A stretch of 64,000 nucleotides of DNA from Candidatus Poriferihabitaceae bacterium (GCA_965249035.1 CBDFKV010000007.1:640313-704312), one strand, 5' to 3'; shown: positions 7,341 through 61,013, counted from the stretch's first letter. Translations and numbers: made by a program. Notes: generated from the sequence alone by a model not told the origin.

Positions 7341-7377
7341 CGTCTCTTTCTTGTTTCGACCAACCGACCATACCGCA

Positions 7378-7842: not shown

Positions 7843-7958
7843 GCAGAAAACTGCACGACTAAACTAGGGGCCGCAATCACATCAGCAACCCTTGCGGTTC
7901 TGGGCCTGGAAATACTAAGCGCGCTTGTCACGGCCGTGCTTAACGCACGGTATAGGAT

Positions 7959-8153: not shown

Positions 8154-8332
8154 CGTGTATCTCCAAATCAAGTGGAATTGCCTCAGAAGCGGGTATTCTA
8201 TGCGATGCCACTCTATGGGGAAATTGCCCCTGTCACCAAATTCTGGTCGCAAATGAGATAAGTAAACTATCTCTTTCGGTCTAATAGTTGAGCTAAACCT
8301 ACCCAATGAGACGCAAGATTTGATAATAAGAC

Positions 8333-9916: not shown

Positions 9917-10020
9917 GAAGTGCGCTTACCAAGCAAAATAGCGCGCGATTCTTCCACAACCGAGCATGGCATTCCAGAAGTATTTCACCAAAAGCTAATA
10001 TATTATTCCAGTGCTAAATG

Positions 10021-10861: not shown

Positions 10862-10920
10862 ATTGCTGTGTTAATAAAATGGGTAATGTTAGCTGGATGA
10901 CCTCTCAACTGCTTTCTAAC

Positions 10921-12015
<1,095 letters not shown>

Positions 12016-12028
12016 TTAATTAAACCTA

Positions 12029-13054
12029 TTAACCTTTTGTTTTTTCGATAAACATCGCGTCACCATAACTAAAGAATCGATAACCCGATTCGACCGCGTG
12101 GTGATAAGCTTGCAGCATACTTTGTTTGCCCGCGAACGCAGAGACCAACATCAGTAGCGTTGATTTAGGCAAATGGAAATTGGTGATCAGCGCATCCACG
12201 ACCTGAAACTGAAAGCCGGGATATATAAACAACTGTGAATCGCCACCGCCCGCGCACAATTCGCCGCTAACGGCAGCCGTCTCCAACGCACGCACGCTGG
12301 TGGTGCCCACCGCAATCACCCGGCCACCCGCCGCCTTGGTTTGCTGAATTGTCTCAACCACGGCAGCGCTCACTTCAAAGCGCTCGCGGTGCATCTGATG
12401 TGACTGCACATCGTCCACCTTGACTGGCTGAAAGGTGCCTGCACCCACATGCAGGGTGAGCGTTGCGGTATTAACGCCCCGTTTTGGCAGTTCAGCCAGC
12501 ATCTGTTGGTTAAAGTGCAGCCCCGCTGTTGGCGCTGCTACCGCGCCCTCTTTTTCAGCGAAAATCGTTTGATAACGATCCACATCCAAGTCTTTGTCAA
12601 CACGCCGTATGTAAGGCGGTAACGGTATGTGCCCGTGGTCATAAAACAGTGCGATGCCATTCGCAGGTTCAAGCAGTCTGAACTCAAAGAACGTTCCCAC
12701 ACGCCGCTCAAACTGCACAACGGCTTCACCCGACTGAAGTAAAACTTGGCCTGGTTTCAACGGCTTGTTACTTTTGGCTAAGGCGATAAATCGGTCTTCA
12801 TTAATCAGTCTCTCCAGCATCACTTCAACCGCGCCACCGCTGGGTTTATTCAGGTGCAATCGAGCCGGAATGACCTTGGTATCATTCATGACCAGCAAAT
12901 CACCCGCACGCAAAAACTGGGGCAAATCAACAAATTGATGATCCAACAGGCGCTTATCTTCAACCACCAAAAGGCGTGAGCCACCGCGAAATTTCGATGG
13001 CATTTGCGCGATCAGCGCTGCTGGCAACTCGTAATCAAAATCGTCCGTTTTCAT
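12029..13054 (-). CDS. queA: S-adenosylmethionine:tRNA ribosyltransferase-isomerase
   Basis: DFDYELP N-terminus, TAGLHF, AVGTTS motifs. Start taken at Met8 of the track ORF. Confidence 0.93.
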   Translation of the reverse strand: MKTDDFDYELPAALIAQMPSKFRGGSRLLVVEDKRLLDHQFVDLPQFLRAGDLLVMNDTKVIPARLHLNKPSGGAVEVMLERLINEDRFIALAKSNKPLKPGQVLLQSGEAVVQFERRVGTFFEFRLLEPANGIALFYDHGHIPLPPYIRRVDKDLDVDRYQTIFAEKEGAVAAPTAGLHFNQQMLAELPKRGVNTATLTLHVGAGTFQPVKVDDVQSHQMHRERFEVSAAVVETIQQTKAAGGRVIAVGTTSVRALETAAVSGELCAGGGDSQLFIYPGFQFQVVDALITNFHLPKSTLLMLVSAFAGKQSMLQAYHHAVESGYRFFSYGDAMFIEKTKG

Positions 13055-13089
13055 ACTATTACCAAGCTTCGCCACCGCGCTTGCAGCTC

Positions 13090-13917
13090 TTATCGGAGTC
13101 GCCCGGTTAATACGGTATCCAGTGATTCCATAATACTACTGAACACCTGTGCTAAACGCTCAGCAACCATTATCTGCCCCGCTTCATCGGCAATCAAATC
13201 TTGCCGAATTTCCAACAAAGCATGGGGATAGCCGTGATCTTCTGCGTGCGCTTCCATCGAATAGCCGATCGGCTTGCAGGGGTGATACGGCTCGTTATCG
13301 CCAATGCACCAGTCTTCGAATTTCTCTAATTCATCGATCAGTAAAGAGGCAACACCGTCATCACGATTCCATAACACACCCAGGTGCCACGGTCGCGTGT
13401 CGCCCTGCCAGCTCGGTGTAAAACTATGCATCGACACTACCAGTGGCATCAGAAATTCGTGACGCATGGAGCCCAGTTCGCGCGCTACGCGATTGTGATA
13501 CGGCACAAACAACTCTTCGATACGAAGCATTCGGTCAAGCAGGCTGATATCTTGATTGCGGGGAATGACCACACCGTCACTCACAGCCAACACTGAGCTA
13601 TCATCCGTCGGATAGCGATTCGGGTCGATCACCAGTCGGGAAAAACGCGATAGTACGGCCCTCGCCCCCAGCTGTTTAGCTAACAAGCGGCTGACAGCTG
13701 CGGCACCAATATCGTAACCAATATGATTCTCTAAACTCTCAGGATTAACTCCTAAACCATTGAGCTTTTGAGGAATATAGTTGCTTGCATGATCACACAA
13801 AATCAGCATCGGCGAATGTGCATCCGGGTTAAAAACTTCAAACGGGTAAGGATCAGCCGGAGTCAGCAGGCGGTGTGTTTTCTCACACTCGTATTGTGAT
13901 TCAAAGATTTCGGTCAT
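13090..13917 (-). CDS. N-formylglutamate amidohydrolase family protein
   Basis: 275 aa. CDHASN, SRLVIDPNR, SMHSFTP, EIRQDLI motifs of the FGase family. Confidence 0.8.
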   Translation of the reverse strand: MTEIFESQYECEKTHRLLTPADPYPFEVFNPDAHSPMLILCDHASNYIPQKLNGLGVNPESLENHIGYDIGAAAVSRLLAKQLGARAVLSRFSRLVIDPNRYPTDDSSVLAVSDGVVIPRNQDISLLDRMLRIEELFVPYHNRVARELGSMRHEFLMPLVVSMHSFTPSWQGDTRPWHLGVLWNRDDGVASLLIDELEKFEDWCIGDNEPYHPCKPIGYSMEAHAEDHGYPHALLEIRQDLIADEAGQIMVAERLAQVFSSIMESLDTVLTGRLR

Positions 13918-13944
13918 CAGGTTTCACTGTGAAGAAGTACCGTT

Positions 13945-14808
13945 TTAGACGACACTTTCAAGAATAAATTGCGCCAAGCGCTGCACCACCTTGGATGGGC
14001 GAGCGGACAGGTAGTGTATGGAAACCGGCGCATTTTGCAATGCCGGCAAGTAAGACGTTTGCTTTATTATTTTTAAGCCCTTTGGCACGGTGCTGCGCGC
14101 CAGTGCAGTCACACCCAAACCAGCCATCACCGCCGCACGAATACCGCCATAACTCGAACCCGTATAAACAATGTCCCAGGCCTTTTTGGAGGCGTCTAAG
14201 GTATGCAACATTCGCTCTCGATAAACACAGCCTTCAGGCGCGACCACCAGCGGCAAGGCACGCGTGTCGCTAAATAACTGCTCAACACCGGTGACCCAAA
14301 CCAAATCTTCACTCCACATTACTTGCTGAGCTGGCTGACCTTCTTCGACCGAATCAATGCCATCAGCACTCAAGGCGATGACAATATCCAAATCCTGCTC
14401 GCGCTGAGAGCGCAGTAAATCGCGTGACAAGCTGCTGACCACTTCAAGACGCACATCCGGATAGCGCTTGGAAAACCCGGCCAAGACTTGGGGTAAATAC
14501 GATACCGCGAACTCGTTGGGGATCCCGAGTCGTACTCGACCTTTAAGCTGTGACTCGCGCAAGCGATGTTTAAGTTCCTGATTTAGCTCTAGAATTTTTC
14601 GACCATATTCAAGCACCAACTTGCCGGAATCAGTTAAAGCCAAGTCCCGCCCGGAATGAACAAACAGGCGACTGCCCACCAGTGCTTCCAGACGCTTGAT
14701 CTGCAGGCTCACCGCCGGTTGCGATTTGCCCAGCACTTTACCGGCCTGGCTAAAGCCATCGCGGTCAACAATGGTGACAAAACAACGGAGTAAATCAGTT
14801 GGATACAT
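13945..14808 (-). CDS. LysR family transcriptional regulator, divergent from gcvT
   Basis: 287 aa. N-terminal wHTH (FSQAGKVLGKSQPAVSLQIKRLE). Confidence 0.9.
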   Translation of the reverse strand: MYPTDLLRCFVTIVDRDGFSQAGKVLGKSQPAVSLQIKRLEALVGSRLFVHSGRDLALTDSGKLVLEYGRKILELNQELKHRLRESQLKGRVRLGIPNEFAVSYLPQVLAGFSKRYPDVRLEVVSSLSRDLLRSQREQDLDIVIALSADGIDSVEEGQPAQQVMWSEDLVWVTGVEQLFSDTRALPLVVAPEGCVYRERMLHTLDASKKAWDIVYTGSSYGGIRAAVMAGLGVTALARSTVPKGLKIIKQTSYLPALQNAPVSIHYLSARPSKVVQRLAQFILESVV

Positions 14809-14827
14809 TTGTGTAGTTGTTTTAGGT

Positions 14828-14852
14828 AAACTATTAGTATTATAAATAGTTT
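14828..14852. promoter_or_regulatory. Candidate LysR-type operator (inverted repeat)
   Basis: AAACTATT-N9-AATAGTTT, perfect 8-bp arms, in the 120-bp LysR/gcvT divergent region. An extra AACTATT half-site lies at about 14859. Confidence 0.5.
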
Positions 14853-14928
14853 GATTTTAACTATTCATTTTTATTAATGCTAGTACTGCGCTATTCTCTC
14901 GCCACACAAAAAATGATACATTTGCTTT

Positions 14929-16041
14929 ATGACCACATCAATCAAAATCACCGCACTGACTGATTTGCACCGTGAGAATGGTGCCAAATTAGTCGAATTC
15001 GCGGGCTATGAAATGCCCATCCAATACCCTTTAGGGATCGTCAAAGAGCACTTACACACCCGTGAAAAAGCCGGACTGTTCGATGTCTCGCACATGGGCC
15101 AAGCCCGCGTGGTCGGTCCGAATGCCGCATTGGAGCTAGAAGCACTCATTCCTATCGACATCGTCGATTTAGCCGATGGCGAGCAGCGCTATGGCTTTTT
15201 CACTAATCCAGAAGGTGGCATTGAAGATGATTTAATGGTGTCGCGCTGGGGAGATGTCATCCACGTAGTGGTCAATGCAGCTTGCAAAGACGCTGATTTT
15301 GCCCATTTGCAAAAGCATCTGACTACTAGCGAGCTGCAAATTCGTGATGATCGTGCGCTCATTGCCTTACAGGGCCCGACTGCGAAAGACGTGATGAGCC
15401 GCCTTGGGCAAGAGCTGGATGATTTCTTATTTATGCAGTGCCAACAATTTGAGATTGGAGGCATTGACTGCGAAATGAGCCGCTCTGGCTATAGCGGTGA
15501 AGATGGCTTTGAGATATCGGTCGACAACCAGGACGCCGTTGCCCTGGCGCGCTTATTGCAAGCCGATGCGGATACTGAGTGGGTCGGCCTAGGTGCACGC
15601 GACACACTGCGGCTTGAAGGTGGCTTGTGTTTATATGGCCACGACATTGACAGCACCACCACGCCTGTTGAAGCGGCATTGACTTGGGCCATCTCCCCTG
15701 CCCGTCGCGCAGACGGCGAGCGAGCGGGCGGCTTCCCGGGCGCAGCATATATTTTGGCACAAATGCCGGCTAAAATTACGCGCAAGCGAGTAGGCCTCAA
15801 GCCCAGTGGCCGAGCACCCATTCGTGATGACACGCCCTTGCTCGACAGCGAAGGCGCCGTCATCGGCAAAGTGTCTAGCGGCGGCTTTAGTCCGTCATTA
15901 GGCCATCCCATTGCGATGGGGTATGTAGACAAATCATACTCGCGCAGAGATACTGTCGTCTATGCCGATGTTCGGCAAAAATCCGTTGAATTGACCGTGT
16001 GCAATCCAACATTTGTACCCAACCGTTTTTATCGAGGATAA
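14929..16041 (+). CDS. gcvT: Glycine cleavage system aminomethyltransferase (T protein)
   Basis: 370 aa. FAGYEMP, LFDVSHMG, SRSGYSGEDGFE motifs. Confidence 0.95.
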   Translation: MTTSIKITALTDLHRENGAKLVEFAGYEMPIQYPLGIVKEHLHTREKAGLFDVSHMGQARVVGPNAALELEALIPIDIVDLADGEQRYGFFTNPEGGIEDDLMVSRWGDVIHVVVNAACKDADFAHLQKHLTTSELQIRDDRALIALQGPTAKDVMSRLGQELDDFLFMQCQQFEIGGIDCEMSRSGYSGEDGFEISVDNQDAVALARLLQADADTEWVGLGARDTLRLEGGLCLYGHDIDSTTTPVEAALTWAISPARRADGERAGGFPGAAYILAQMPAKITRKRVGLKPSGRAPIRDDTPLLDSEGAVIGKVSSGGFSPSLGHPIAMGYVDKSYSRRDTVVYADVRQKSVELTVCNPTFVPNRFYRG

Positions 16042-16047
16042 ATAATA

Positions 16048-16425
16048 ATGAGTGACATGCGTTTTACTGAAGCCCACGAGTGGGCGCGCCAAGAAGGCGA
16101 TGAGATTGTGGTCGGAATCACCCAATTTGCCCAAGAACAACTAGGCGATATCGTATTTGTTGAATTGCCGGATATAGGCGCCGAAATCAGTGCAGGTGAA
16201 GAGGCCGCAGTGGTGGAATCCGTCAAAGCTGCCGGAGACCTAAAAGCACCCATCTCGGGCACGGTGACGGCGGTTAACGAAGTCTTAGTCGACGAGCCAG
16301 AAACAGTTAATGAATCGCCGGAAACTGAGGGCTGGTTTTTTAAGCTCAAAGCCAGCAATAAAGATGAAATGGCTTCCTTAATGGATGCTGATGCCTACGC
16401 CGCATTCGTCGAAACCCAAGCGTAA
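16048..16425 (+). CDS. gcvH: Glycine cleavage system H protein
   Basis: 125 aa. Lipoyl-lysine motif VESVKAA. Confidence 0.95.
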
Positions 16426-16453
16426 AGCCACCCTCTTAACCCAGCCTAAAACC

Positions 16454-19297
16454 ATGCCAAGCGATTTTTCCATGCGCCATATTGGCGTCAGCGACGCTGA
16501 TGTTGCCGAGATGCTATCGACGCTCAGCCTTGATAGTATCGATGCCCTAATCGAGCAAACCATACCCGCCAGCCTGCCGCGTGCGCCACAGCGCTTTGAA
16601 GCAGCGCTGAGTGAGCCCGAGGCTTTAGCGCGTCTTAGCGAGCTGGGGGCACAGAATCAATTGCTAACGTCGATGATTGGCTGTGGTTATTATGGTACGC
16701 ACATGCCCGCAGTGATTCGCCGCAATGCGCTAGAAAACCCGGATTGGTATACCGCTTACACGCCCTATCAGCCTGAAATCAGCCAGGGCCGGCTGGAAAT
16801 GCTGACGGTGTTCCAGCAAATGGTCATGGACCTTACTGGGCTGACGATTGCCAATGCTTCGATGCTGGATGAAGCGACGGCAGCTGCTGAAGCGATGATG
16901 ATGTCCAAGCGCTTGGCGAAAAGCAAAGCAGAAGGCTTTTTCATAGATCAGGATTGCCACCCGCAGACCATCGCGGTGGTACAAACTCGCGCCGAAGCAT
17001 TAGGCTACCCCACTATTGTCGGCGACCCACTCACCGATCTGGACGCCAGCACGATATTTGGCGGCTTATTTCAATATCCTGGCACTAGCGGCGCTATTGT
17101 TGATTATCGCGAGCAAATAGCTGCCTTACACGACCAGCAAGCCTTCGTAACCATGGCCGCCGATATTCTCGCGCTAACATTACTCACCCCACCGGGTGAA
17201 CTAGGTGCGGATATTGCGGTCGGCAGCACCCAGCGTTTTGGTATTCCAATGGGCTACGGCGGCCCTCACGCCGCTTATTTTGCCACCCAAGAAATCTACA
17301 AGCGCTCTATGCCAGGGCGCTTAATTGGAGTCTCCATCGATTCCCAAGGCAAGCAAGCCTACCGCATGGCCTTGCAAACTCGTGAACAACACATTCGCCG
17401 CGAAAAAGCGACCAGCAACATCTGCACGTCGCAAGTTTTGCTGGCGGTGATGGCGGCAATGTACGCCGTCTATCATGGCCCCAAAGGTGTTCAGGCGATT
17501 GCCGAATCGGTACACGTTTTGTGCTGCCGCTTGGCTAAAAGCATGCTTAACGCAGGATTTGAAATTAAGCACAAACACTTTTTTGATACGCTGCAATTTT
17601 CAGCTCCCGGTCAGTCAAATATAGTCATTCAGCAAGCATTGGATGCTGGTATTAACTTACGCGCTATCGACGATAACACCTTCGGGATGAGCCTCGATGA
17701 AACCACTACTGAAGCTGATGTAGAACGCTTACTGGCGGCCATTGCTCCTGAAACGCAATTGGCAGCTGACCCCGGTAACCATATCCCTGAATCATTGCAG
17801 CGTAGCAGCGATTTTCTAACCCATCCGACTTTTTCACTGTATCGAAACGAAACGGCAATGATGCGCTATCTACGTCAACTCTCGCGCAAAGACATTACGC
17901 TGGCTCGCTCCATGATCCCTCTCGGCTCATGCACTATGAAGCTCAATGCTGCAGCGGAGATGGAATCGGTCAGCAACCCAGCGTTTGCCAATTTGCATCC
18001 TTTTGTGCCGATCAATCAAGCTGCCGGTTATCAGCAATTGATTCAGGAACTGGCCGACGACCTGTGTGAGATAACTGGCTACGATGGCCTCTCTATGCAG
18101 CCCAATGCTGGCTCCCAAGGCGAATACGCTGGACTATTAACCATCCGTGCCTATCACCTCAGTCGTGGTGATAGCGACCGCACAATTTGCCTAATCCCGT
18201 CATCCGCACACGGCACCAACCCTGCCAGCGCGGTAATGGCCGGGATGAAAGTGGTGATCATCAAATGCCTGGATAATGGCAATATTGATATTGATGACTT
18301 ACGCACCAAAGCGGAGCAACACAGCGACCAATTAGCCGCCATGATGGTCACCTACCCATCGACTTTCGGCGTATTTGAAGCCGAGATTCGCACCCTATGC
18401 GACCTCATCCACGAGCACGGCGGGCAGGTCTATTTAGACGGCGCCAATATGAACGCAATGGTCGGCTTATGCCGACCCGGTGATTTGGGTTCTGATGTCT
18501 CACACTTAAATCTGCACAAGACTTTCGCAATTCCACACGGCGGTGGTGGCCCAGGTATGGGGCCGATTGGCGTAAAAAAGCACTTGATCCCCTTTCTACC
18601 GGCCCACAGCCTGGTTGACGGCGTCAATCCCGCAAAAGATGCACAGCCCATTGGTAGTGTCTCTGCTGCGCCATGGGGCTCACCACTGATCTTGCCCATT
18701 TCGTGGGCATACATCAAAATGCTGGGAACCGAAGGCTTACTGGCGTCAACCAAAATTGCGATTTTAAATTCTAACTACATTGCCACCCGCTTGGCAGATC
18801 ACTTCCCCGTGCGCTATACCGGCGAAAATGGCCGCGTTGCGCACGAGTGCATCATTGACTGTCACGCCTTTAAAGAAAGCTGTGGTATTTCAGTAGAAGA
18901 TATCGCTAAGCGATTGATTGACTATGGTTTTCATTCCCCAACCATGTCTTGGCCAGTAGCCGACTCACTGATGATAGAGCCGACCGAAAGCGAGCCTAAA
19001 GCAGAGATTGATCGTTTCATCGAGGCGATGATTGCGATCCGAGCAGAAATTGCAGAGATCGAATCCGGCAAGGCGGATCATGACAACAATTTACTTAAAA
19101 ATGCACCACACAGCCACAGCTTGATCGCAACTGACAAGTGGCCATTCCTGTATTCGCGTGAACAAGCCTTTTTCCCAGCGCAGCAATCACATGATGACAA
19201 GTACTGGCCACCGGTTGGTCGCCTGGATAATATTTATGGTGACCGCAACTTGTTCTGCTCATGCCCAGCGATTGAAAGCTACGAGCAAGAAACATGA
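16454..19297 (+). CDS. gcvP: Glycine dehydrogenase (decarboxylating), single-chain P protein
   Basis: FSMRHIG N-terminus, PLP site NLHKTF. Start taken at the ATG at 16454, because the track start 16385 would overlap gcvH. Confidence 0.95.
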
Positions 19298-20250
19298 ACA
19301 GCCCGATAGCCGTCGTAACCGGGGTTAAACAACGCGGCGAAGATAAAACCGCTCGTATCCCGGTGAAGATTAGCCCTCAACCGAAACAAGAGCGGCTGCG
19401 CAAGCCGAAATGGATCAGGGCAAGTTTTACCGGCACGGCTGAAGTCAGTGAGCTAAAACGTATTCTGCGCGCACAAAATATGCACACCGTCTGTGAAGAA
19501 GCCGCTTGTCCCAATTTGGGCGAGTGCTTTAGCAAGGGCACTGCAACCTTTCTGGTAATGGGTGATATTTGTACGCGTCGCTGCCCGTTCTGCGACGTCG
19601 CCCATGGTCGCCCATTAGCGCTGGATACTGAAGAACCACGCAAACTGGCTGAGACCATCAAAGCGATGGGCTTGAAATATGTCGTCATCACCTCAGTCAA
19701 CCGGGATGATTTACGCGATGCCGGTGCCGCCCATATCGCTGACTGTGTGCGCGAAGTACGCGCCGCTTGTGAGGGTATAAAAATTGAGATCCTCACGCCT
19801 GATTTCAGAGGCCGGGTTGACGTTGCGCTCGATATTCTCGAAACGGCTCCGCCGGATGTGTTTAACCACAACATGGAAACGGTCAAACGCCTCTATCTTG
19901 AGGCACGCCCGGGTGCTGATTATCAAGTATCGCTCGATCTGCTCCAAGCCCACAAACAACGTATTCCCGAGGTGACCACCAAGACAGGAATCATGGTCGG
20001 AATCGGTGAAACCAAGGACGAGTTGGTTGAGTTATTTTCTGATCTGCGCACGCATCAAGTCGAGATGCTTACCGTCGGCCAATACCTGCAACCCAGCGCC
20101 CACCACCTCGCCGTTAAGAAATACTACAGCCCAGAAGAGTTTGATGAGTTGCGTGACATTGCCGAAAGTATGGGCTTTAGTAATGTCGCATCGGGGCCAA
20201 TGGTGCGCTCGTCATACCACGCCGATCAGCAAGCTAGTGAGGCTTGCTAG
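19294..20250 (+). CDS. lipA: Lipoyl synthase
   Basis: 318 aa. [12 protein letters not shown] and radical-SAM CTRRCPFC cysteine clusters. ATGA overlap with the gcvP stop. Confidence 0.95.
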
Positions 20251-52410: not shown

Positions 52411-52485
52411 GCAGTAACCCTATATACCCCAGCAATTTTTGCCGCTAGCGGGCTTTAGAAAGGTAGAAATAAGGGGCTGGCTATC

Positions 52486-52656
52486 GTTCCTAAGAGAGCG
52501 ATTATTTCGCAAGGTGATCTGTTCAAGGTTCACATGACAGACCTAATCAACCTGAAGCACCCCCTTTTGCCGTCTGTCGGGTTGGTTGACCAGGAACGGC
52601 TCGATGTTGATACCAAACGCAGCAGCCTCGGAGTCAGACTAGCTCAATTTGTGTGA
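52486..52656 (+). pseudogene. IS5-family transposase relic, N-terminal (DUF772) fragment
   Basis: Translates as VPKRAIISQGDLFKVHMTDLINLKHPLLPSVGLVDQERLDVDTKRSSLGVRLAQFV*. The PK....QGDLF......IN.KHPL pattern is the N-terminus of about 470-aa IS5-family transposases. No start codon, and truncated after about 70 residues. Confidence 0.7.
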
Positions 52657-52692: not shown

Positions 52693-53541
52693 CTAATTAC
52701 GCTCCGGTTTTTTCAAGTCCCCCAAGCTGTCTAGCGTATTTGAACTCGCCCCCAATTTATACTGCGGGTAAGCAATTTCGCCATCGCGAAAACTTTTTAA
52801 AGGCTGGCCCAGTCCCAGAATACCTGTTTCACGTGTATAGCCGACCCTGTCCAGATCAAGAATTACAGGGATAGGCTCAGCTGTGTCGCCGGACTGGTGA
52901 ATAATATCTCCTTCCGGACCAACAATAATGGACTTCCCATTACCGAGATCTCCGCAGGAATTGATATCAACGAAATAGCATTGATTGGTTACAGCGCTGG
53001 CGCGTGCAATAGAAAGCTCAAGATCTCTATCGATAGTATTGGTTAAAGTTGGATGCAGAATCACTTCTGCCCCCAGATAGGCCAATGCCCTAACGGTTTC
53101 CGGAAACCACATGTCGTAACAAATTGACACCCCGAAACAGCCCACCCCGGGTATATCAAATACCGTATGTTGGTCACCACTATCTATGCCGCTTTCGTAA
53201 GGCTCAAATGGATACAGCTTTCTATGCCGAGCCACAAGGTCTCCCTCCGGATTTATAACGGGTGCTGTGTTGTAAATTTTCTCCCCATCCATTTCATACA
53301 TGGAACCGGGAATCAGCCAAATATTATGCTTTTTGGCTAAACTGCAAAAATGATTGACAGCAGGGCCTGGGATCGGTTGAGCGGAACGCAGCGATGTTCC
53401 AAAGATGCTGAGCTCACCGAACATGATTAATTGAACCCAGGGAAATCGGTGCACGACATTGAGGATTTGTTTTGTCATGACGTCAAGATTGTCGCCGTTA
53501 ATCGCTTTCATCTGGACACCTGCGACTGCAAATTTATTCAT
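52693..53541 (-). CDS. Carbon-nitrogen hydrolase (nitrilase superfamily amidase)
   Basis: 282 aa. Glu-Lys-Cys triad motifs FGE (E43), RHRKLYPF (K108), SICYDMWFPE (C141). Confidence 0.88.
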   Translation of the reverse strand: MNKFAVAGVQMKAINGDNLDVMTKQILNVVHRFPWVQLIMFGELSIFGTSLRSAQPIPGPAVNHFCSLAKKHNIWLIPGSMYEMDGEKIYNTAPVINPEGDLVARHRKLYPFEPYESGIDSGDQHTVFDIPGVGCFGVSICYDMWFPETVRALAYLGAEVILHPTLTNTIDRDLELSIARASAVTNQCYFVDINSCGDLGNGKSIIVGPEGDIIHQSGDTAEPIPVILDLDRVGYTRETGILGLGQPLKSFRDGEIAYPQYKLGASSNTLDSLGDLKKPERN

Positions 53542-53544
53542 ATC

Positions 53545-54498
53545 TTAATTACTGGTAATTGGGTTAAAACAGGCGACAGCACCCGTAGAATCTTCCGATA
53601 TCAACCGGGGCTGATGCGAGATGCATTTATCGCTTGATAAATCGCAACGAGAACAAAAAGCGCACCCATTCGGCAAATTGAGCGGATTGGGTAACTCACC
53701 TTTCAGCACGCGTAATTGATTGCGCATAGTCGGATCAATAGAAGGAACAGAATCTAGTAGTCCACGCGTGTAGGGATGCTTTGGATTTTCAAATATCGCT
53801 GTAACAGAACCTTGCTCGACGATCTTTCCTAGATACATGACCATCACGTCATCAGCGATGTACTCGACCGTTGCCAGATTGTGGGATATAAACAAATAAG
53901 CCAACCCTAAGCGGCTTTTCAACTCCTTCAATAAATTAAGCACCTGCGCCTGTACCGAAACATCCAATGCTGCAGTCGGCTCATCCAGTATCAGCACCTG
54001 AGGTTCAAGTGCCAAAGCTCTGGCAATGGCAATTCGTTGCCGTTGCCCTCCTGAAAATTGATGAGGAAAACGATTCAAGTGCTCCGACCCTAGCCCGACA
54101 TCTTCTAAATGCTGGACTACCCTATTAGTGAGTTCCCTGCCCTTAATCCCGTAACAGACAACCAACGGCTCTGCGACGATATTTTTCAGCCTCATCTTTG
54201 GATTTAAAGAAGAATAAGGGTTTTGAAAAACAATGCTGACGTTCCGTCGATACCGCTGTAATTCGCCTAAGCTCATCTCTCTGACGCTCTGCCCGGCAAA
54301 ATTAATGTCCCCCGACTCAGACTCAATCAGGCGTAAAACAGCAGAAGCAACTGTACTTTTCCCGCAACCGGACTCGCCGACCAATGCCAGTGTTTGCCCA
54401 CGCTTAAGCTCGAAACTCACATCGTTTACGGCATTAATCACCCCGTCAGTGGTATGGAATTGTTTGTGCAAATTCACCACTGATAACGTTCCATTCAT
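53545..54498 (-). CDS. Oligopeptide/dipeptide-type ABC transporter ATP-binding protein (DppF/OppF-like)
   Basis: Walker A GESGCGKST, FSGGQRQR, ILDEPT, and a C-terminal oligo_HPY region. Start at Met13 of the track ORF, giving an ATGA overlap with the upstream stop. Confidence 0.9.
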   Translation of the reverse strand: MNGTLSVVNLHKQFHTTDGVINAVNDVSFELKRGQTLALVGESGCGKSTVASAVLRLIESESGDINFAGQSVREMSLGELQRYRRNVSIVFQNPYSSLNPKMRLKNIVAEPLVVCYGIKGRELTNRVVQHLEDVGLGSEHLNRFPHQFSGGQRQRIAIARALALEPQVLILDEPTAALDVSVQAQVLNLLKELKSRLGLAYLFISHNLATVEYIADDVMVMYLGKIVEQGSVTAIFENPKHPYTRGLLDSVPSIDPTMRNQLRVLKGELPNPLNLPNGCAFCSRCDLSSDKCISHQPRLISEDSTGAVACFNPITSN

Positions 54499-55475
54499 TG
54501 GACCGCGTCCCCCTGTATCCCGCTCATATGGCAAGCCACGCTGTGTGTGGTAGTTACATTGTTCGTAAGAGGTGAACGTGTTTGGCAGAGTTCAATGTCC
54601 TCGCTACACCGCGCCTGAAAGGCACAGCCCGTGGGTAAGGCCGCCATATCCGGCATTTGTCCGGCAATATAGTCAAGTTTCCTGTCTTTGCATCCTATAG
54701 TCGGAACAGTTTGCAATAATTTTCGGGTATAGGGATGAGCAGGATGACTAAATACATCGTCTACCTCGCCCGATTCAACAATCTCACCCGCATACATTAC
54801 TGAGACGCGATCACATAATGATGCCACCACCCCTAAATCATGCGTAATAAATAGTACCGCCAAATTATTTTTGGCTGTCAGTTCTCTAATGAGCAACAAA
54901 ATCTGCGCCTGGATGGTGACATCTAACGCTGTAGTTGGCTCATCCGCGATCAGCAAATCAGGTTTACAGGCAATCGCCATGGCAATCATAATGCGCTGTA
55001 ACTGGCCACCGGATAGTTGGTGAGGGTATTTCTTTAAGGTTTCAGATGGGTTTGGAATATGAACTGACTTCAGGGCACTAAGTCCTTCATCGGCGGCTGC
55101 TCGATGAGACATCGGTAAGCTGAAGCGAATCGCATCACAGAGTTGATCACCAATACAAATAAAAGGGTTGAGCGCGGTCATCGGATTTTGAAAAATCATC
55201 GCGGCTGTACCTCCGCGCAATTTACAAAGCTGACTGTCAGGCATATCCAACACTTCCTGGCCATTAATGCGGATATGGCCACTGGATTTGCCTGGCTTTG
55301 GAACCAGCCCCAGACAGGACAAAGCGGTCATCGACTTGCCACTGCCTGACTCCCCCACCAAGCCCACTATTTCCCCACTGTTTACCTCCAAAGAACACCC
55401 TCGTACAACCTCAATTTGATTGCTCAGTTTGGGGAAGGTGACACGCAACTCCTGAATATTTAAAACTGAATCCAT
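54495..55475 (-). CDS. Oligopeptide/dipeptide-type ABC transporter ATP-binding protein (DppD/OppD-like)
   Basis: 326 aa. GESGSGKSM, LSGGQLQR, LIADEPTTALD. Confidence 0.9.
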   Translation of the reverse strand: MDSVLNIQELRVTFPKLSNQIEVVRGCSLEVNSGEIVGLVGESGSGKSMTALSCLGLVPKPGKSSGHIRINGQEVLDMPDSQLCKLRGGTAAMIFQNPMTALNPFICIGDQLCDAIRFSLPMSHRAAADEGLSALKSVHIPNPSETLKKYPHQLSGGQLQRIMIAMAIACKPDLLIADEPTTALDVTIQAQILLLIRELTAKNNLAVLFITHDLGVVASLCDRVSVMYAGEIVESGEVDDVFSHPAHPYTRKLLQTVPTIGCKDRKLDYIAGQMPDMAALPTGCAFQARCSEDIELCQTRSPLTNNVTTTHSVACHMSGIQGDAVQ

Positions 55476-56359
55476 TACTGAGAATTTCCGTGTTTTGGGT
55501 CGAGCAGATCCCTGATCCCATCACCGAGTAAATTTACCGCTAGAACGGTAATAAATATCGCAAAACCCGGAGCGGCTGCGGTCCACCAGAAATCAAGAAA
55601 CTTTGAACGAGACAATGCCGCCATCAGCCCCCACTCAATGGTCGGTGGGCGCGCCCCGATACCAATAAAACTTAAAGAGGCCGCAGCCAAAATGGTGTAA
55701 CCAAAATCCATGGATGCCTGGACGATCACAGGTGTGGTAGCGTTGGGCAGTGCATGCCTGACCATAATTCGAAAATGACCGACACCCATTACTCGGGCAG
55801 CATCGATATATAACTCCTTTTTAATTGCCAGTACCGAGCTACGCATAATTCTGGCGTACCACGGAAACCAGGAAATGGCCAATGCCAACATCGCATTAAA
55901 CAGCCCAGCTCCTAGCGCGGCGGTAATCGCGATGGGCAGTAAGAGCGGAGGAAAAGCCAGAAAAATATCCGAAATTCGCATCAAGATAGTATCGATACGA
56001 CCACCAAAATACCCAGAAACAAGGCCAATGGGAACGCCTATTAATACTGATAATACCAGCACAGAGAAGCCGATCACCAGTGACGTCCGCGCACCGTAAA
56101 TTACTCGGGAGAAAAGGTCTCGGCCCAACTCATCCGTACCCATCAAATGGGTCAGCCCAGGTGGTAAGAGCTTGTCACTAAAATTGATTTTTGCAGGGTC
56201 AAAAGGTGCTATCAGAGGTGCCATGACCGCCATCAGCACAACCAGAATAAATAGCGCGCTACCAAAAACAAATAAAATATTACTGGAAATAAAATACCGG
56301 CACTTCTCAGCCCAGAAAGGTCCCTCGGAAAGCATAGACTCAGCCGCCTGATTAGACAC
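55475..56359 (-). CDS. ABC transporter permease (DppC/OppC-like)
   Basis: 294 aa. N-terminal OppC_N-type helix and an EAA loop (DAARVMGVGHFRIM). Confidence 0.9.
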   Translation of the reverse strand: MSNQAAESMLSEGPFWAEKCRYFISSNILFVFGSALFILVVLMAVMAPLIAPFDPAKINFSDKLLPPGLTHLMGTDELGRDLFSRVIYGARTSLVIGFSVLVLSVLIGVPIGLVSGYFGGRIDTILMRISDIFLAFPPLLLPIAITAALGAGLFNAMLALAISWFPWYARIMRSSVLAIKKELYIDAARVMGVGHFRIMVRHALPNATTPVIVQASMDFGYTILAAASLSFIGIGARPPTIEWGLMAALSRSKFLDFWWTAAAPGFAIFITVLAVNLLGDGIRDLLDPKHGNSQ

Positions 56360-56361
56360 GT

Positions 56362-57378
56362 TCAGGAGGCCTCAAGGCGTGGATCTGCCACGAAATAGAG
56401 TAGGTCAACAATCAGATTGATACTCAAATAAATCGTTGCTAAAAACAAGGTTACGCCCATCACTGCGGGAAAGTCGCTTTGGGTAATTGCACCGACGACA
56501 TAGCCGCCAAGGCCAGGCCAGTCAAATATATATTCAACAACCACCGAACCACCGAGCATAAATCCATATGTCAGACCAATGATGGTCATCATGGGAATCA
56601 AAGTGGCCTTTAGCGCATAGCGAAAATACACTAGCCTGTCAGGCAAACCGAATGCTCTGGCGGTTCGTATGTAATCCTCACTCAACACTTCTACCATGGT
56701 ATTGCGCGTAATTCTGATGATCACAGAAAGCGAAGCAATGCTCAGGGTTAATACCGGTAACACCAGGTGTGCAGCCGCACTTTTAAACGCCACCCAATGC
56801 CCTGACAACAGGGTATCAATTAAATAAATTCCCGTGACTCTATCAAAAGGAAAATCAAGCAGCACTTCTACATTCATTCGCCCCTGGAGTGGCAGCCACC
56901 TCAACCATCCGTAGAACACCATCTGCAATATCATTCCAATCAGGAATATGGGTAGTGCCATACCGGCGATGGAGAAACTCCTAGTGATATGGTCACTGAA
57001 TGTGTTTTGACGAACCGCCGACAACACGCCCAGTGGAATTCCAAGCACGATAACCAACATAACCGCCAAAGTGGTTAACTCAAACGTAGCTGTCATCCGT
57101 TCCAGTAAATCATCAAGCACCGGTTGTCGAGTACGCAGGCTTATTCCAAAGTCACCCTGTAACACCCCCGATACGTAATGGATAAATTGAACCGGAATGG
57201 GATGATCCAGGCCATATTCAGCCCGAGCCAGGTCTATCTGCTCCTGGGTGGGGCGGTGACCTAGCATCATCTCTATAGGCGAGCCCGGTAATAAGCGGCT
57301 CAGCGCAAATGTGACAATCAATACCCCGACAAGAATAAGGATCATCAGCATCAGGCGCTGAGCAATGTGTTTCCACAT
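56362..57378 (-). CDS. ABC transporter permease (DppB/OppB-like)
   Basis: 338 aa. BPD_transp_1 core with SEDYIRTARAFGL. Confidence 0.9.
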   Translation of the reverse strand: MWKHIAQRLMLMILILVGVLIVTFALSRLLPGSPIEMMLGHRPTQEQIDLARAEYGLDHPIPVQFIHYVSGVLQGDFGISLRTRQPVLDDLLERMTATFELTTLAVMLVIVLGIPLGVLSAVRQNTFSDHITRSFSIAGMALPIFLIGMILQMVFYGWLRWLPLQGRMNVEVLLDFPFDRVTGIYLIDTLLSGHWVAFKSAAAHLVLPVLTLSIASLSVIIRITRNTMVEVLSEDYIRTARAFGLPDRLVYFRYALKATLIPMMTIIGLTYGFMLGGSVVVEYIFDWPGLGGYVVGAITQSDFPAVMGVTLFLATIYLSINLIVDLLYFVADPRLEAS

Positions 57379-57405
57379 TTTGGTTAACTCATCTTTGTTA
57401 AACGC

Positions 57406-58962
57406 TTATTGTGAAAGTCGATGGAAAAATACCGCGTCGTAGGCTGGGTTCGCTTCCAGCCCTTTAATAGAGGATGCTCGTGCCACTCTCTTTTTAATAT
57501 CGGCAAAGAATATAGCGACCGCGTCATCCATCAAAATTTGCTGTGCTTTGGCATAATTGTCGATGGCCTTTTCGCGATCCGATCCTTCAAGTTCGATCCC
57601 TTCATTCAATAGCTTGTCGTACTCGGGGTTAGAATAGTGGGAAAGATTAAATAAAGCTTTTTCTTCAGTACGGAACAAACCAACCATCCAATCATTAGGG
57701 GTAGCATAAGTGGGCCACCAGGTCATGGATTGCATGTTGGGAGCAGTCTTAAGGGTTTTTGCTTTATCCCAAATTACACCCCACTCTCCGGGTAACAGCT
57801 CAACTTCAACGCCGACTTGGCGAGCATTTTCTTGAAACAAAAGCGCTGAGTTTTTGTACTCTTCAGATGTTCCAATGTACGCGATGCTGACTTTCCTCTC
57901 TGATTCAGGCACGCCAGATTCCTCGATCAACATTTTGGCTTTTTCCAGGTCGAATTCAGGCGCCTGAATGGCAGCGTTATGGCCCCACATCGTTGCAGGA
58001 ACAGGCCCGCGTCCCACCTCAGCGTGACCCGCGTAAATATCATTTACCACCGTGTCATAATCCCACATACGAGTAAGGGCTTGGCGAAATTTCTTGTTAT
58101 TCGTTGGTGCTTTTTGGGTGTTTATCAGAAACTGTGAGTTCTTCCACGACGGGATGGCATACGCGGTCAGACCTTCTTCTTGGTTTACCGAATCCACCAT
58201 ATCGGCTGGCACCAACGAAATAAAATCCGCCTCACCGGCTTTCAGCATTTGTAACTGAGTTGAATTCTCGGTGACGACTTTAAGGATCACACGGTCGAAA
58301 TTGTCATCTTTCCAGCCTCCCCAGTAATCGCCATTCTTTTCAAGCACAACCTGCTGGGCTTTATCCCATTGTCGAACCGCATAAGGCCCGGTGCCTGCTG
58401 CATTTCCCTGGTTGAACCAGTCAGCTCCATTTGCAGCAGCCTTGGGTGAATACATGTAGGCGGCGTACTGCGAAGACGCAATCAGGTCCAGCGGCTGAGG
58501 TGTCTTGGTTTTAATCACCAAAGTGTGACCATCCGCATTGATTGACTCCACGCTGGCCCAGATATAGTGAGCACCCTTTTTGAGTTCCATCGTTCTTTCG
58601 AGCGATTTCTTGGCCGCTTCAGCGTTAAAAACTTCGCCATCATGGAACTTGACGTTCTCGCGTAGATTAAAGGTCCAGGTCAAACCATCATTACTCACCG
58701 ACCAGTCTGTTGCTAGCGCCGGCGTGAACTGCTCTTTGCTTCCCGGTGGGTTGTACCACATTAAAGGCTCGTACACGTTTACCAGCATCACCACCTCGAG
58801 CGAAAATGCGCTGGCAGGATCCCAGTCCTTAATATCGCCATACATGGCGTATGTAACCGTTTTATTATCTGCCTGGGCGACAGAGCCGGCGAATAACATG
58901 TTTGCAAAAATCAGGGCAAACGAAGCCGTCAGTAGTTTTTTAAATAGATTTATGTATCTCAT
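57406..58962 (-). CDS. ABC transporter substrate-binding protein, family 5 (peptide/nickel/opine)
   Basis: 518 aa. Signal peptide ending AGSVAQA; SBP_bac_5 pattern (LATDWSVSNDGLTWTFNLRENVKFHDG). Confidence 0.9.
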   Translation of the reverse strand: MRYINLFKKLLTASFALIFANMLFAGSVAQADNKTVTYAMYGDIKDWDPASAFSLEVVMLVNVYEPLMWYNPPGSKEQFTPALATDWSVSNDGLTWTFNLRENVKFHDGEVFNAEAAKKSLERTMELKKGAHYIWASVESINADGHTLVIKTKTPQPLDLIASSQYAAYMYSPKAAANGADWFNQGNAAGTGPYAVRQWDKAQQVVLEKNGDYWGGWKDDNFDRVILKVVTENSTQLQMLKAGEADFISLVPADMVDSVNQEEGLTAYAIPSWKNSQFLINTQKAPTNNKKFRQALTRMWDYDTVVNDIYAGHAEVGRGPVPATMWGHNAAIQAPEFDLEKAKMLIEESGVPESERKVSIAYIGTSEEYKNSALLFQENARQVGVEVELLPGEWGVIWDKAKTLKTAPNMQSMTWWPTYATPNDWMVGLFRTEEKALFNLSHYSNPEYDKLLNEGIELEGSDREKAIDNYAKAQQILMDDAVAIFFADIKKRVARASSIKGLEANPAYDAVFFHRLSQ

Positions 58963-59000
58963 TTCGATCCTCTTTATAGTCTTGGGTGCGTGTGGTTCAG

Positions 59001-59014
59001 TCAGAATATTCTGA
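59001..59014. promoter_or_regulatory. Perfect 14-bp palindrome in the 5' leader of the binding-protein gene
   Basis: TCAGAATATTCTGA, located between the sigma-54 promoter and the RBS. Confidence 0.35.
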
Positions 59015-59034
59015 CAAAACCGTCACATAAGCGA

Positions 59035-59050
59035 AGCAAAATACATGCCA
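59035..59050 (-). promoter_or_regulatory. Sigma-54 (-24/-12) promoter for the ABC/C-N hydrolase operon
   Basis: The minus strand reads TTGGCATGTATTTTGCTT, which is TGGCA-N6-TTGC with exact GG-N10-GC spacing. It lies about 75 nt upstream of the SBP ATG and directly downstream of a sigma-54 activator gene. Confidence 0.75.
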
Positions 59051-59163
59051 ATTTTTATAAATACTAATTATCCTATAATTTACAAAGAGTTACCTATTTA
59101 TTTACCGGTCAATAATTATTCACAGTTGGATAACAGCAGGTTTATATTCATAACTGAATGAAA

Positions 59164-60570
59164 TTAAACCGCCCCGGTTCGAAATCCGTGTTTTTTCAGG
59201 AGTCTGGCAACAGTGGGTTGAGAAATGCCGAGCGCACCAGCAATTTGACTTTGAGTTTTGTATCGACGGCAGGCTGAAGACAGACACTCGCTTTCGACCG
59301 CGTCCAGGGATTGCTTAAGGTTTGCAGTGACTTGTCTGGTTCTTAGCGGTGATACTGTATCCAGTATATTTTGAGGAAGATCGCTTATGGTGATTTCATC
59401 GGACTGACTGAGTACATAACTGTGTTCCAATATATTTTCCAGTTCGCGAACGTTGCCCGGATAGTGATATCGGGAAAGAAGTTCCATCGCATGCTGGTCA
59501 ATTGATTTAGCCACCTTGTGTTGATTAGCAAGCCTTTGAAGAAAATGGGCTACCAATGGAAATAGGTCATCGTACCGCTCAGACAAAGACGGTAGGTCGA
59601 TCGGCACCACATTGAGGCGATACCATAAATCTTTACGAAACGCTCCCTGCTCTACTTTTGATTCCAGATCACTGTTGGTAGCCGCGATAAGCCTAACATC
59701 GACCTGCTGAACTCGTCTCCCCCCAACTTTTATAAAGCCCTGGGTATCGAGAAAGGTCAGTAGCTTTACTTGCACATCAAGTGAAAATGCGTCTATTTCA
59801 TCAAGAAATAACGTTCCACCATCAGCGGCTTCAACCAGGCCACTTTTACCCCCAGGTCGCGCACCCGTAAACGCCCCGTCGGCATAGCCGAATAACTCTG
59901 CTTCCGCCAGCGAATCAGGAATAGCACCACAATTGAGCGTTAGGAAAGACTTGTCTCGGCGACTAGATCCATCATGGATAAGTCGCGCAATCATGCTTTT
60001 GCCGGTTCCCGATGCACCCGTGAGCAATACGGTTGTGTCAAATTCAGCGACGCGGAAAACCATTTCCATTACCCTTTCCATGGGTTCACTGATTGCAACG
60101 ATTTCCTGAAGTTTCAAGCCCTTCATTTTCATTGATAGTAACTCTGACTGGATTTTTTTTGCCACCTCCTGGTTTTGCTCGACCTCCTCTTTAAGCATAT
60201 TTAACTCGGTCATATCCCGCTCACTGCCAACGACGAACTTAACGTTTCCCTGTTTATCGAATATGGGCACGCCATTGACCAGCAAGGTACGCTTTGATTT
60301 GACTTTCTGGATAATGGTGACAGGCTTCTTTTCGCGCAATACCCTTTGCGTTACATCCGTGTCGATGTTTCCCATGCTCAATATCTCTTCTACCGATTTG
60401 CCACATACTTCTTCTCGCTTAATATTATTCAGCGCCTCACACGCACTGTTTATCCAAAGCAGTTTGGGCGTTGCATCGCATACCCATACCCCATCAGTCA
60501 TCGCTTCAAATATTTGCTCGAGTTCATTAGCGGCAAATACATCCTGTACATTTTCCAGCTGTAATTTCAT
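59164..60570 (-). CDS. Sigma-54-dependent transcriptional activator (PAS sensor - AAA+ - Fis-type HTH)
   Basis: 468 aa. PAS (DGVWVCD...LWINSACEALN), Walker A GASGTGKS, GAFTGA motif, ESELFGY-like (AELFGY), and a C-terminal HTH (QSQIAGALGISQPTVARLLKKHG). Confidence 0.92.
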   Translation of the reverse strand: MKLQLENVQDVFAANELEQIFEAMTDGVWVCDATPKLLWINSACEALNNIKREEVCGKSVEEILSMGNIDTDVTQRVLREKKPVTIIQKVKSKRTLLVNGVPIFDKQGNVKFVVGSERDMTELNMLKEEVEQNQEVAKKIQSELLSMKMKGLKLQEIVAISEPMERVMEMVFRVAEFDTTVLLTGASGTGKSMIARLIHDGSSRRDKSFLTLNCGAIPDSLAEAELFGYADGAFTGARPGGKSGLVEAADGGTLFLDEIDAFSLDVQVKLLTFLDTQGFIKVGGRRVQQVDVRLIAATNSDLESKVEQGAFRKDLWYRLNVVPIDLPSLSERYDDLFPLVAHFLQRLANQHKVAKSIDQHAMELLSRYHYPGNVRELENILEHSYVLSQSDEITISDLPQNILDTVSPLRTRQVTANLKQSLDAVESECLSSACRRYKTQSQIAGALGISQPTVARLLKKHGFRTGAV

Positions 60571-60572
60571 GA

Positions 60573-61013
60573 CTGCTATATAGACCCGCCGTTTTATCCA
60601 TTATTGAATACTTTAACGTACCATACATCAACTAGAACTCGATATCATTTTAGAGCTATCTGTAGCACGCCGAAAGCATCTACGGTGATACTTAGGTTGA
60701 ACTTGGGTGCAGAATCCTTGCTAACAACTATTTTGTGAAGAAGGGCGTGGCTGGCTTTTAACGGCCACCTTTGAGGTGGTCTTGAACGCAGCACGACCAC
60801 CTATATCAGCTTCAATCGGGATGTCGCACCCACGTACAGGAGAAGAATATTGCCTTTCCAACCGACACAGCCAGCTCGATTACCAATCACGCCAATAGTC
60901 GGTTAAGATTGCCCCGGGCAGGAAACTATTTTACGTCAGACCTATCAAAAGGACAGCCGATTATGACCATGAAAGCAGGTCGTTATGCGCGTGCCAAGCA
61001 GTTCAAACGGATG
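60573..61013 (+). pseudogene. IS5-family transposase relic, middle fragment (frameshifted, with internal stops)
   Basis: Frame 0: LLYRPAVLSIIEYFNVPYIN*. Frame +1: ...STVILRLNLGAESLLTTIL*. Frame 0 again: ...CRTHVQEKNIAFPTDTASS...KAGRYARAKQFKRM. The motifs LS..(W).NPY.QYF, (W)RKR.GEE, VQEK.IAFPTD and GRYA.AKQFKR occur in this order in about 470-aa IS5-family transposases. The DDE catalytic C-terminal half is missing; the MTAP gene begins at 61035. Confidence 0.7.

Follow-up and report, generated by a model that had tools for sequence, protein, structure and literature searches.

The 64,000-nucleotide stretch of DNA analysed here (the window) comes from a Candidatus Poriferihabitaceae bacterium (GCA_965249035.1 CBDFKV010000007.1:640313-704312). 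Positions 52,693 to 60,570 of it hold a block of seven genes: an enhancer-binding protein (EBP), a family-5 substrate-binding protein (SBP) with the permeases and ATPases of a Dpp-type ATP-binding cassette (ABC) importer, and a C-N hydrolase of the nitrilase superfamily. Our analysis indicates that this module very probably imports a compound and hydrolyses an amide under the control of its own sigma-54 activator. A more specific proposal, in which the module would import and cleave a conjugate that yields gamma-aminobutyric acid (GABA), is suggested by comparison of gene neighbourhoods, and we hold it with about equal belief and doubt. It draws on one recurrent observation: links to GABA metabolism turn up time and again for the clades of the hydrolase and the SBP as well as for the activator.

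The original prediction had described seven co-directional open reading frames, and these were found in place on the minus strand, with Pfam upholding their domain calls (Table 1). The tight junctions that it had claimed were also seen on reading: gaps of 27 nt between the SBP and the first permease, 2 nt between the two permeases, and 3 nt between the second ATPase and the hydrolase, together with a TAATG-type overlap of 1 nt at 55475 and an ATGA overlap at 54498-54495, where the two ATPase genes meet. Judging from these overlaps, the six genes downstream of the EBP gene would form one transcript; no convincing intrinsic terminator was found 3' of the hydrolase gene. Since a single operon encodes an SBP_bac_5 protein, a pair of permeases and a pair of ATPases with oligo_HPY domains, the transporter belongs to the peptide/nickel/opine family of ABC importers. 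None of the NCBIfam equivalog cut-offs was reached by the SBP, the hydrolase or the EBP.

Table 1. Features of the module and its flanks, in positions of the window (RBS, ribosome-binding site; UAS, upstream activating sequence; HTH, helix-turn-helix; IS, insertion sequence).
Feature	Position	Strand	Remarks
Enhancer-binding protein (EBP), 468 aa	59164..60570	-	Pfam: PAS 16-123, Sigma54_activat AAA+ 158-324, AAA_lid_14, HTH_50 417-462
SBP_bac_5 periplasmic substrate-binding protein, 518 aa	57406..58962	-	PF00496 1.5e-80; Sec signal peptide ending AQA|D
ABC permease, DppB/OppB type, 338 aa	56362..57378	-	BPD_transp_1_N + BPD_transp_1
ABC permease, DppC/OppC type, 294 aa	55475..56359	-	OppC_N + BPD_transp_1
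ABC ATPase, DppD/OppD type, 326 aa	54495..55475	-	ABC_tran + oligo_HPY
ABC ATPase, DppF/OppF type	53545..54498	-	ABC_tran + oligo_HPY; ATG at 54498, longest ORF from TTG at 54534
Nitrilase-superfamily C-N hydrolase, 282 aa	52693..53541	-	PF00795 1e-34, 120.5 bits vs cut-off 23.2
UAS1, predicted activator site ATTCAGTTATGAAT	59146..59159	-	Palindrome ATTCA-N4-TGAAT; starts 5 nt past the EBP stop codon
UAS2, predicted activator site ATCCAACTGTGAAT	59118..59131	-	One mismatch; 28 bp from UAS1
TAACT-N3-TTG block	59083..59092	-	Between UAS and promoter; T79 A80 C82 T83 T86 T87 G88 invariant in an 8-locus alignment
Sigma-54 promoter TGGCATGTATTTTGCT	59035..59050	-	GG-N10-GC; TGGCAT-N5-TTGCT; 73 nt upstream of the SBP start codon
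Leader hairpin	58994..59021	-	Around the perfect 16-bp palindrome GTCAGAATATTCTGAC (59015-59000); between sigma-54 promoter and RBS
IS5-like transposase remnant, N-terminal, left flank	52459..52656	+	Weak match, E 0.029: 12 residues align with aa 42-53 of an IS5-like transposase encoded in the genome
IS5-like transposase remnant, middle (aa ~107-235), right flank	60704..61013	+	tblastn 31-38% identity, E 4e-9

Does this arrangement of genes recur elsewhere? We found the seven-gene order repeated in at least 18 independent loci with unrelated flanks, a recurrence that is far beyond chance. These comprise L001, L002, L003/4, L005, L179, L180 and L181 (L-numbers label the compared genome and metagenome loci) and about 10 metagenome loci; the carriers include Marinobacter sp. 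X15-166B, Saccharospirillum impatiens, a Sneathiella contig, two gammaproteobacterial metagenome-assembled genomes and several long contigs. Scanning metagenomes by SBP alignment gave 33 loci that had an SBP at least 50% identical to that of the module and enough room downstream. Permeases and ATPases were present in 29 of them, and the hydrolase closed the operon in 24 of these 29; the tree of the hydrolase clade likewise indicated that the enzyme co-evolves with the ABC operon. Where the SBP was an orphan, the hydrolase lay elsewhere in the locus (4/4), and the activator-bearing and hydrolase-bearing records coincided in size in 14 cases. The view that the module is self-contained and is kept as a block thus held up.

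The ABC operons that lack the hydrolase (5/29) are themselves informative. In L132, L134, L137 and L156, the ATPases are followed on the 3' side by a regulator of the GntR/FCD type, an amidase-signature enzyme and two peptidases, one a Peptidase_S58 and the other of the M20 family; L125 shows this set in part, the GntR/FCD regulator being its sole annotated replacement gene. This amidase/peptidase set looks like a non-orthologous replacement. Because the slot of the hydrolase is taken there by an amidase-signature enzyme and peptidases of the S58 and M20 families, the step that follows import would still be amide hydrolysis.

The hydrolase of the module is a true nitrilase-superfamily enzyme that stands outside every characterised branch. 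Its tetrad (E43, K108, E116 and C141) was invariant in alignments of 15 and of 57 sequences, the C-terminal motif LGQPLKSFRD was invariant in the alignments of its clade, and it has no signal peptide. The AlphaFold2 (AF2) model, with a pLDDT of 95.7, displays the alpha-beta-beta-alpha nitrilase fold. Foldseek matched this model with a probability of 1.00 to AmiF, Nit2, Nit3 and N-carbamoylputrescine amidohydrolase (CPA), at TM-scores of 0.77-0.86; AmiF (TMq, 0.85-0.86), Nit2/Nit3, CPA and aliphatic amidase were the structural relatives found, at 22-31% identity. By sequence, the best PDB matches were Nit3 and Nit2 (~1e-21), with identities of 27-31%. Three known identities were tried and rejected: omega-amidase or deaminated-glutathione amidase (NF033621, 66 against a cut-off of 355; NF043013, 61 against 500; PRK10438, 25 against 249), formamidase or aliphatic amidase (AmiF and AmiE, 74 against 406 and 65 against 427, at 22-26% identity), and N-carbamoylputrescine amidase (AguB; TIGR03381, 68.8 against 410). 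It is on these scores, far below the NCBIfam cut-offs, and on the identities of at most 31% to solved structures that our placement of the enzyme rests; the profile and structure searches left it in no characterised clade of the superfamily.

We also examined the SBP. Its nearest solved relatives are 5u4o (an unannotated SBP), HbpA, DppA and GsiB/YliB, with phmmer values of 1e-40 to 1e-33 to HbpA/YliB. In DppA, Asp408 holds the alpha-amino group of the bound peptide and Arg355 its C-terminal carboxylate; the aligned DppA PDB entry has opposite charges at exactly these two positions, consistent with those roles. In the alignment, D408 corresponds to T418 of the module SBP, a threonine that is invariant in its family and that replaces an aspartate common to DppA and HbpA, and R355 corresponds to E367. 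An ordinary dipeptide is therefore an unlikely ligand, since the Asp and Arg anchors of the peptide termini have given way to Thr and Glu. Among the candidate identities that we rejected, DppA itself fails by score (NF043070, 121 against 1005) as well as by the missing Asp/Arg pair. A glutathione binder of the GsiB/HbpA kind scored 137 bits against 594, a similarity at the level of the family only, and the binders of metals and metallophores were equally distant (NikA, 163 against 393; Opp5A_nikA, 163 against 600; CntA, 133 against 800). Given that the block is conserved, that the hydrolase falls outside the known branches and that the SBP departs from canonical peptide binders, the most economical reading is that the imported compound contains a non-peptide C-N bond.

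The EBP has the hallmarks of a sigma-54 activator: a Sigma54_activat domain (PF00158, 1.3e-62) with Walker A (GASGTGKS) and the GAFTGA loop in its sequence, an HTH domain of borderline score (HTH_50, 25.6 against a cut-off of 27), a -24/-12 promoter nearby and an rpoN gene in the genome. Its PAS domain is 56-92% identical over 87 relatives, the next drop being to 33%, a pattern that fits the recognition of a specific ligand. The sigma-54 promoter claimed in the original prediction was recovered as the -24/-12 element TGGCATGTATTTTGCT at 59050-59035, and it is conserved together with the EBP: most EBP-bearing loci have TGGCAY-N5-YTGC(A/T/G) 63-102 nt upstream of the SBP start (further upstream in two), and where no EBP is linked, a sigma-54 promoter was hardly ever found upstream of that start, nor was the UAS pair. 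The palindrome ATTCA-N4-TGAAT occurs in 17 of the 21 EBP-bearing loci, about 80-110 bp upstream of the -24 element and often twice; the 28-bp pairing seen in the module was also present in L087, L088, L089, L096 and L140. The whole genome has 5 copies of this palindrome, and its combination with a sigma-54 promoter is found solely at the module. From this distribution, we predict that the EBP binds UAS1 and UAS2, and the TAACT-N3-TTG block is a possible bending site for integration host factor (IHF). The nitrogen-scavenging control expected in the original prediction found no support here: the activator that serves the promoter is not NtrC but a dedicated PAS protein for which separate binding sites are conserved. 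Between the promoter and the SBP gene, the 75-nt leader folds at -17 kcal/mol (z, -2.2). The pairing of its hairpin is kept in the three closest loci (L085-L087), where the changes are mostly G-U wobbles, and an Rfam search of the leader matched no family.

What, then, might the substrate be? In a census that took one genome per species, close relatives of the hydrolase were present in at least 555 species, with identities of 53-60% among the matches listed. Neighbourhood clustering and a tree showed that the genomic contexts of the clade follow its phylogeny. In the first (context A), the hydrolase accompanies the ABC operon; the subclade that includes the module has 20 rows, among which the operon was found in 19 and the EBP was detected in 18. 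A deeper branch of this context has hydrolases that are 42-46% identical, GntR/FCD regulators and a neighbouring Peptidase_S58 of the DmpA/BapA type. Three ABC-type loci (L140, L133 and L023) link the operon directly to GABA catabolism: gabD (TIGR01780, 694 against 646), gabT (TIGR00700, 584 against 507) and an EBP that is 51-53% identical to that of the module stand divergent from SBP, permeases, ATPases and hydrolase. On the SBP side, L140 carries a UAS pair and a sigma-54 promoter. Its gabT, directly downstream of the 53%-identical activator, has its own predicted sigma-54 promoter, TGGCACAGCGGTTGCT (L140:8140-8340, on a Phaeomarinobacter-like contig), and about 80 bp upstream of that stands the UAS-like ATTCAGCGGTGCAT, which has one mismatch. 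In L114, L121 and L122, gabT and a gabD resembling succinic semialdehyde dehydrogenase (SSADH) adjoin the operon, convergent on the hydrolase, and gabT and/or gabD are present in L112, L150 and L157.

Context B is a four-gene operon of the hydrolase, an ATP-grasp protein, a C45 N-terminal nucleophile (Ntn) hydrolase and a 931-aa decarboxylase. Its carriers belong to Halomonas, Marinobacter, Anaerolineales and Planctomycetota, and their hydrolases share 53-60% identity with that of the module. The ATP-grasp protein scored 760 against a cut-off of 684 for PRK06524, which we take to be the family of Rv1722. In Mycobacterium tuberculosis, Rv1722 is the GABA-trehalose synthetase, which ligates GABA to trehalose and gives an ester product (bioRxiv 10.64898/2026.04.15.718621); Rv2531c of the same organism is a glutamate decarboxylase of the long form (PMC13506015). 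The 931-aa protein contains an OKR_DC_1 domain and is putatively Rv2531c-like. The sharing of an operon with genes of these two types suggests that the hydrolase clade is part of GABA-conjugate metabolism. Neither gene type is present in this window or genome. In Halomonadaceae (L007, L043 and about 28 others, at ~6900-19900), this set of four interrupts an ectoine-degradation cluster (doeA-doeB-doeX ... doeC-doeD) between doeX and doeC. In view of that insertion into an ectoine-catabolism cluster, the conjugate may be solute-like.

Context C combines the hydrolase with a MocR regulator, a TonB-dependent receptor, a tetratricopeptide-repeat (TPR) sulfotransferase, a secreted protein of 730 aa and a major facilitator superfamily (MFS) transporter; gabT and gabD are often present as well. 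The secreted protein (~730 aa; L068:13361-15541 and relatives, cluster c25) is unannotated and always stands beside the TPR-sulfotransferase. Its domains are a beta-sandwich resembling CBM22, a central beta domain in which Cys and His are conserved (NANCTHNG), and a C-terminal domain with the EstG/class-C beta-lactamase fold and its SxxK motif (LPSYSLAKS). Orphan copies of the SBP clade, which lack permeases and ATPases, adjoin the TonB-dependent receptor and this 730-aa hydrolase in L113, L119, L124 and L150; the periplasmic binding protein seems to be shared by two uptake routes.

Because the three contexts of the hydrolase clade converge on GABA genes, we favour a conjugate that yields GABA. 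The original prediction had left a list of candidates (an N-acyl or N-carbamoyl compound, an opine-like compound or a deaminated peptide). Its common element, a hydrolysable C-N bond, is kept in our reading, and the GABA-gene contexts narrow the list towards a GABA-yielding conjugate.

The most economical account of the module is a horizontally mobile, substrate-specific unit for catabolic scavenging. In our model, the periplasmic SBP would capture a small peptide-like compound without normal peptide termini, and the Dpp-type transporter would bring it into the cytoplasm. There, the hydrolase would cut the C-N bond of the compound via a thioester at Cys141. The bond is most likely an amide, and we infer the identities of both substrate and product: the product released would most likely be GABA, which GabT and GabD could take to succinate. 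As gabT and gabD are encoded elsewhere in this genome, the released GABA could be used. For its expression, the EBP, seated on the two ATTCA-N4-TGAAT sites about 100 bp upstream and helped by a bend in the DNA, would open the sigma-54 promoter once its PAS domain has detected the presumed ligand, which would be the conjugate or GABA itself. Enzymes of this one hydrolase clade would be at work both in producers (context B) and in consumers that bring a larger precursor across their outer membrane (context C). Extending this further, we tentatively picture a GABA conjugate that circulates in saline and marine communities, made by context-B producers and scavenged by non-producers through either the ABC module or the TonB/MFS locus, with the nitrilase clade as the dedicated hydrolase and a new functional branch; this wider scenario is possible rather than probable.

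Several observations weigh against the release of GABA. The genes gabT and gabD are not adjacent to the module in this genome or in its closest relatives, and no UAS and sigma-54 signature was present at the genome's own gabT and gabD. Of 38 ABC-type loci, only about 9 have gabT or gabD as neighbours, and a single lineage accounts for several of these. The transaminase and the aldehyde dehydrogenase found nearby in Halomonas are encoded by doeD and doeC, which belong to ectoine metabolism, so this share of the association does not concern GABA. The 931-aa decarboxylase of context B is possibly a glutamate decarboxylase, being only putatively Rv2531c-like; its best NCBIfam matches, all below cut-off, point to Lys/Arg/Orn decarboxylases. 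AmiF, an amidase of small amides, is the best fold match (TMq, 0.86), which fits a terminal carboxamide on any skeleton. For the hydrolase, SBP and EBP clades alike, the suggested link to GABA is genomic throughout. We know of no nitrilase-superfamily enzymes that are dedicated esterases. Finally, for Rv1722-type ligases a single product has been characterised, and it is an ester (bioRxiv 10.64898/2026.04.15.718621).

The alternative that survives best keeps import followed by hydrolysis and drops GABA: the substrate would be an amino-acid amide, a short peptide amidated at its C-terminus, or a beta-alanyl or N-carbamoyl compound, and the ammonia and acid set free would serve as a nitrogen source. 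The closest folds (formamidase and aliphatic amidase, then Nit2/Nit3 and CPA) agree with this idea, the amidase-signature, S58 and M20 enzymes of the hydrolase-less sister operons suit peptide amides, and gabT and gabD are missing from the closest seven-gene loci. However, the scores for all characterised amidase and carbamoylase families are far below cut-off, and the genomic contexts converge on GABA genes: the Rv1722-type ligase with the putative Rv2531c-like decarboxylase, the gabT-gabD pair, and the EBP-linked gabT promoter. We consider a substrate unrelated to GABA possible, though somewhat unlikely.

Less probable still, and in our estimate doubtful, is the import of a GABA ester such as a GABA-sugar resembling mycobacterial GABA-trehalose, with the hydrolase acting as an esterase through its Cys thioester. 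The ester made by the one characterised Rv1722-type ligase speaks for it; the fold of the 730-aa partner in the TonB context (CBM22-like, EstG/class-C beta-lactamase) suggests an esterase acting on a glycan, and some family-5 SBPs bind sugars. On the other hand, enzymes of the nitrilase superfamily are C-N hydrolases that cleave esters as a side activity only, and the non-orthologous replacements of the hydrolase are amidases and peptidases.

We rejected two further readings on scores and genomic context. One is an importer of glutathione or gamma-glutamyl peptides (Gsi/HbpA-like), in which an omega-amidase or deaminated-glutathione amidase would repair or salvage deaminated products. HbpA and GsiB/YliB are indeed the second-best PDB relatives of the SBP, and Nit3 and Nit2 the best PDB sequence matches of the hydrolase. 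Nonetheless, the scores for GsiB and for deaminated-glutathione amidase given above fall far short of their cut-offs, identity to Nit2/Nit3 is low, the aspartate of DppA and HbpA is a threonine here, and no ggt or glutathione genes occur in any context, making this reading very improbable. Least credible is a nickel or metallophore (opine-type) importer with the hydrolase as an unrelated passenger: NikA, Opp5A_nikA and CntA are the top NCBIfam matches of the SBP, yet all score far below cut-off, the hydrolase is coupled to the operon in most loci and evolves together with it, neither genes nor regulators related to metals are present, and control lies with the sigma-54/PAS activator.

How the module reached this genome can be read in part from its flanks. 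It was probably acquired horizontally, since none of the 40 family- or order-level relatives searched has the SBP and since the module lies between two IS5-like remnants. It also sits at a synteny break, and among 399 further genomes sampled from the class, only 6 carry the hydrolase clade. The two remnants are co-oriented and non-overlapping, bracket the module and are apparently parts of one transposase gene; the match of the left one is weak, and thus bracketing by a single transposase gene is only partly verified. Pfam gave no match to the flanking peptides, and the remnants are recognisable only through the genome's own IS5-like transposase, a distant element with several copies in the genome (e.g., C6:4236-4415 and C7:1336711-1336890). 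A search of the genome found no intact copy of the bracketing IS. A precise empty site cannot be drawn: the nearest genomes are distant (MTAP is 59% identical), and the GT2-MTAP pair is kept but the fadH side is not. Elsewhere, the flanks of the module in L181 (6693-8313) and L180 (1998-7006) hold arginase-family, isochorismatase, DDAH/ADI-like, AstE/AspA-like and Amidohydro_1 genes, which may represent further guanidino or amide catabolism, or coincidence.

A literature search on the gene combination, on C-N hydrolases in ectoine clusters and on C-N hydrolases with gabT/gabD returned nothing relevant, in keeping with the original prediction that the combination is not a characterised pathway: no published description of it was found. 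The families of the parts are well known. Three things are new about their assembly: a conserved mobile unit of importer and amidase with its own sigma-54 switch, a hydrolase clade with no characterised member despite its wide distribution, and an SBP clade that has lost the anchors of peptide termini. The first description of bacterial GABA conjugates dates from 2026 (GABA-trehalose, M. tuberculosis). If the link to GABA is true, bacteria well beyond the mycobacteria make, release and scavenge such conjugates, and the binding protein, the hydrolase and the inducible promoter are three handles for finding the compound. Cultured hosts exist (Marinobacter sp. X15-166B and Saccharospirillum impatiens), and a specific biosensor could be built from the predicted operator and promoter.

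How does the module compare with known systems? With the Dpp/Opp/Gsi/Nik importers (TC 3.A.1.5) it shares the five-component layout, but its SBP is below all of their equivalog cut-offs, and sigma-54 drives its operon, whose last gene encodes a C-N hydrolase. The hydrolase has the fold and the Glu-Lys-Glu-Cys tetrad in common with Nit2/Nit3 and AmiF/AmiE (branches 10 and 2 of the superfamily), along with an AmiF-like C-terminal extension. It differs from them in its low identity (22-31%), in its scores (65-74 bits against cut-offs of 355-500), in its own motif and in the genomic partners of its clade, namely an importer and GABA genes. In the lysine catabolism of Pseudomonas, the nitrilase-superfamily amidase DavA (5-aminopentanamidase) releases an omega-amino acid that then passes to a class-III transaminase (DavT) and a semialdehyde dehydrogenase (DavD). 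The module would follow the same logic of steps, and it is by this logic alone that we liken the two; the substrate of DavA is made inside the cell by DavB, with no importer and no sigma-54 control. Of the M. tuberculosis pair, a homologue of Rv1722 and a putative homologue of Rv2531c share an operon with hydrolases 53-60% identical to ours. For the switch, the counterpart is GabR of Bacillus thuringiensis, a sigma-54 activator that responds to GABA or succinic semialdehyde and activates gabT (PMC4279683). We liken the two by layout: both are PAS-AAA+-HTH proteins, with borders at 22-119/149-320/408-447 in GabR (PMC4279683) and 16-123/158-324/417-462 in the EBP, and both have repeats close upstream of a sigma-54 promoter. 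The binding sites differ, with a pair of 14-bp palindromes predicted at the module and 21-bp repeats for GabR, as do the regulated genes, which are the importer and hydrolase in the one case and gabT in the other; in relatives of the L140 type, the EBP lies next to gabT-gabD. By analogy with these systems, the module may be viewed as Dpp-type uptake joined to a DavA-like amidase step under a GabR-like switch.

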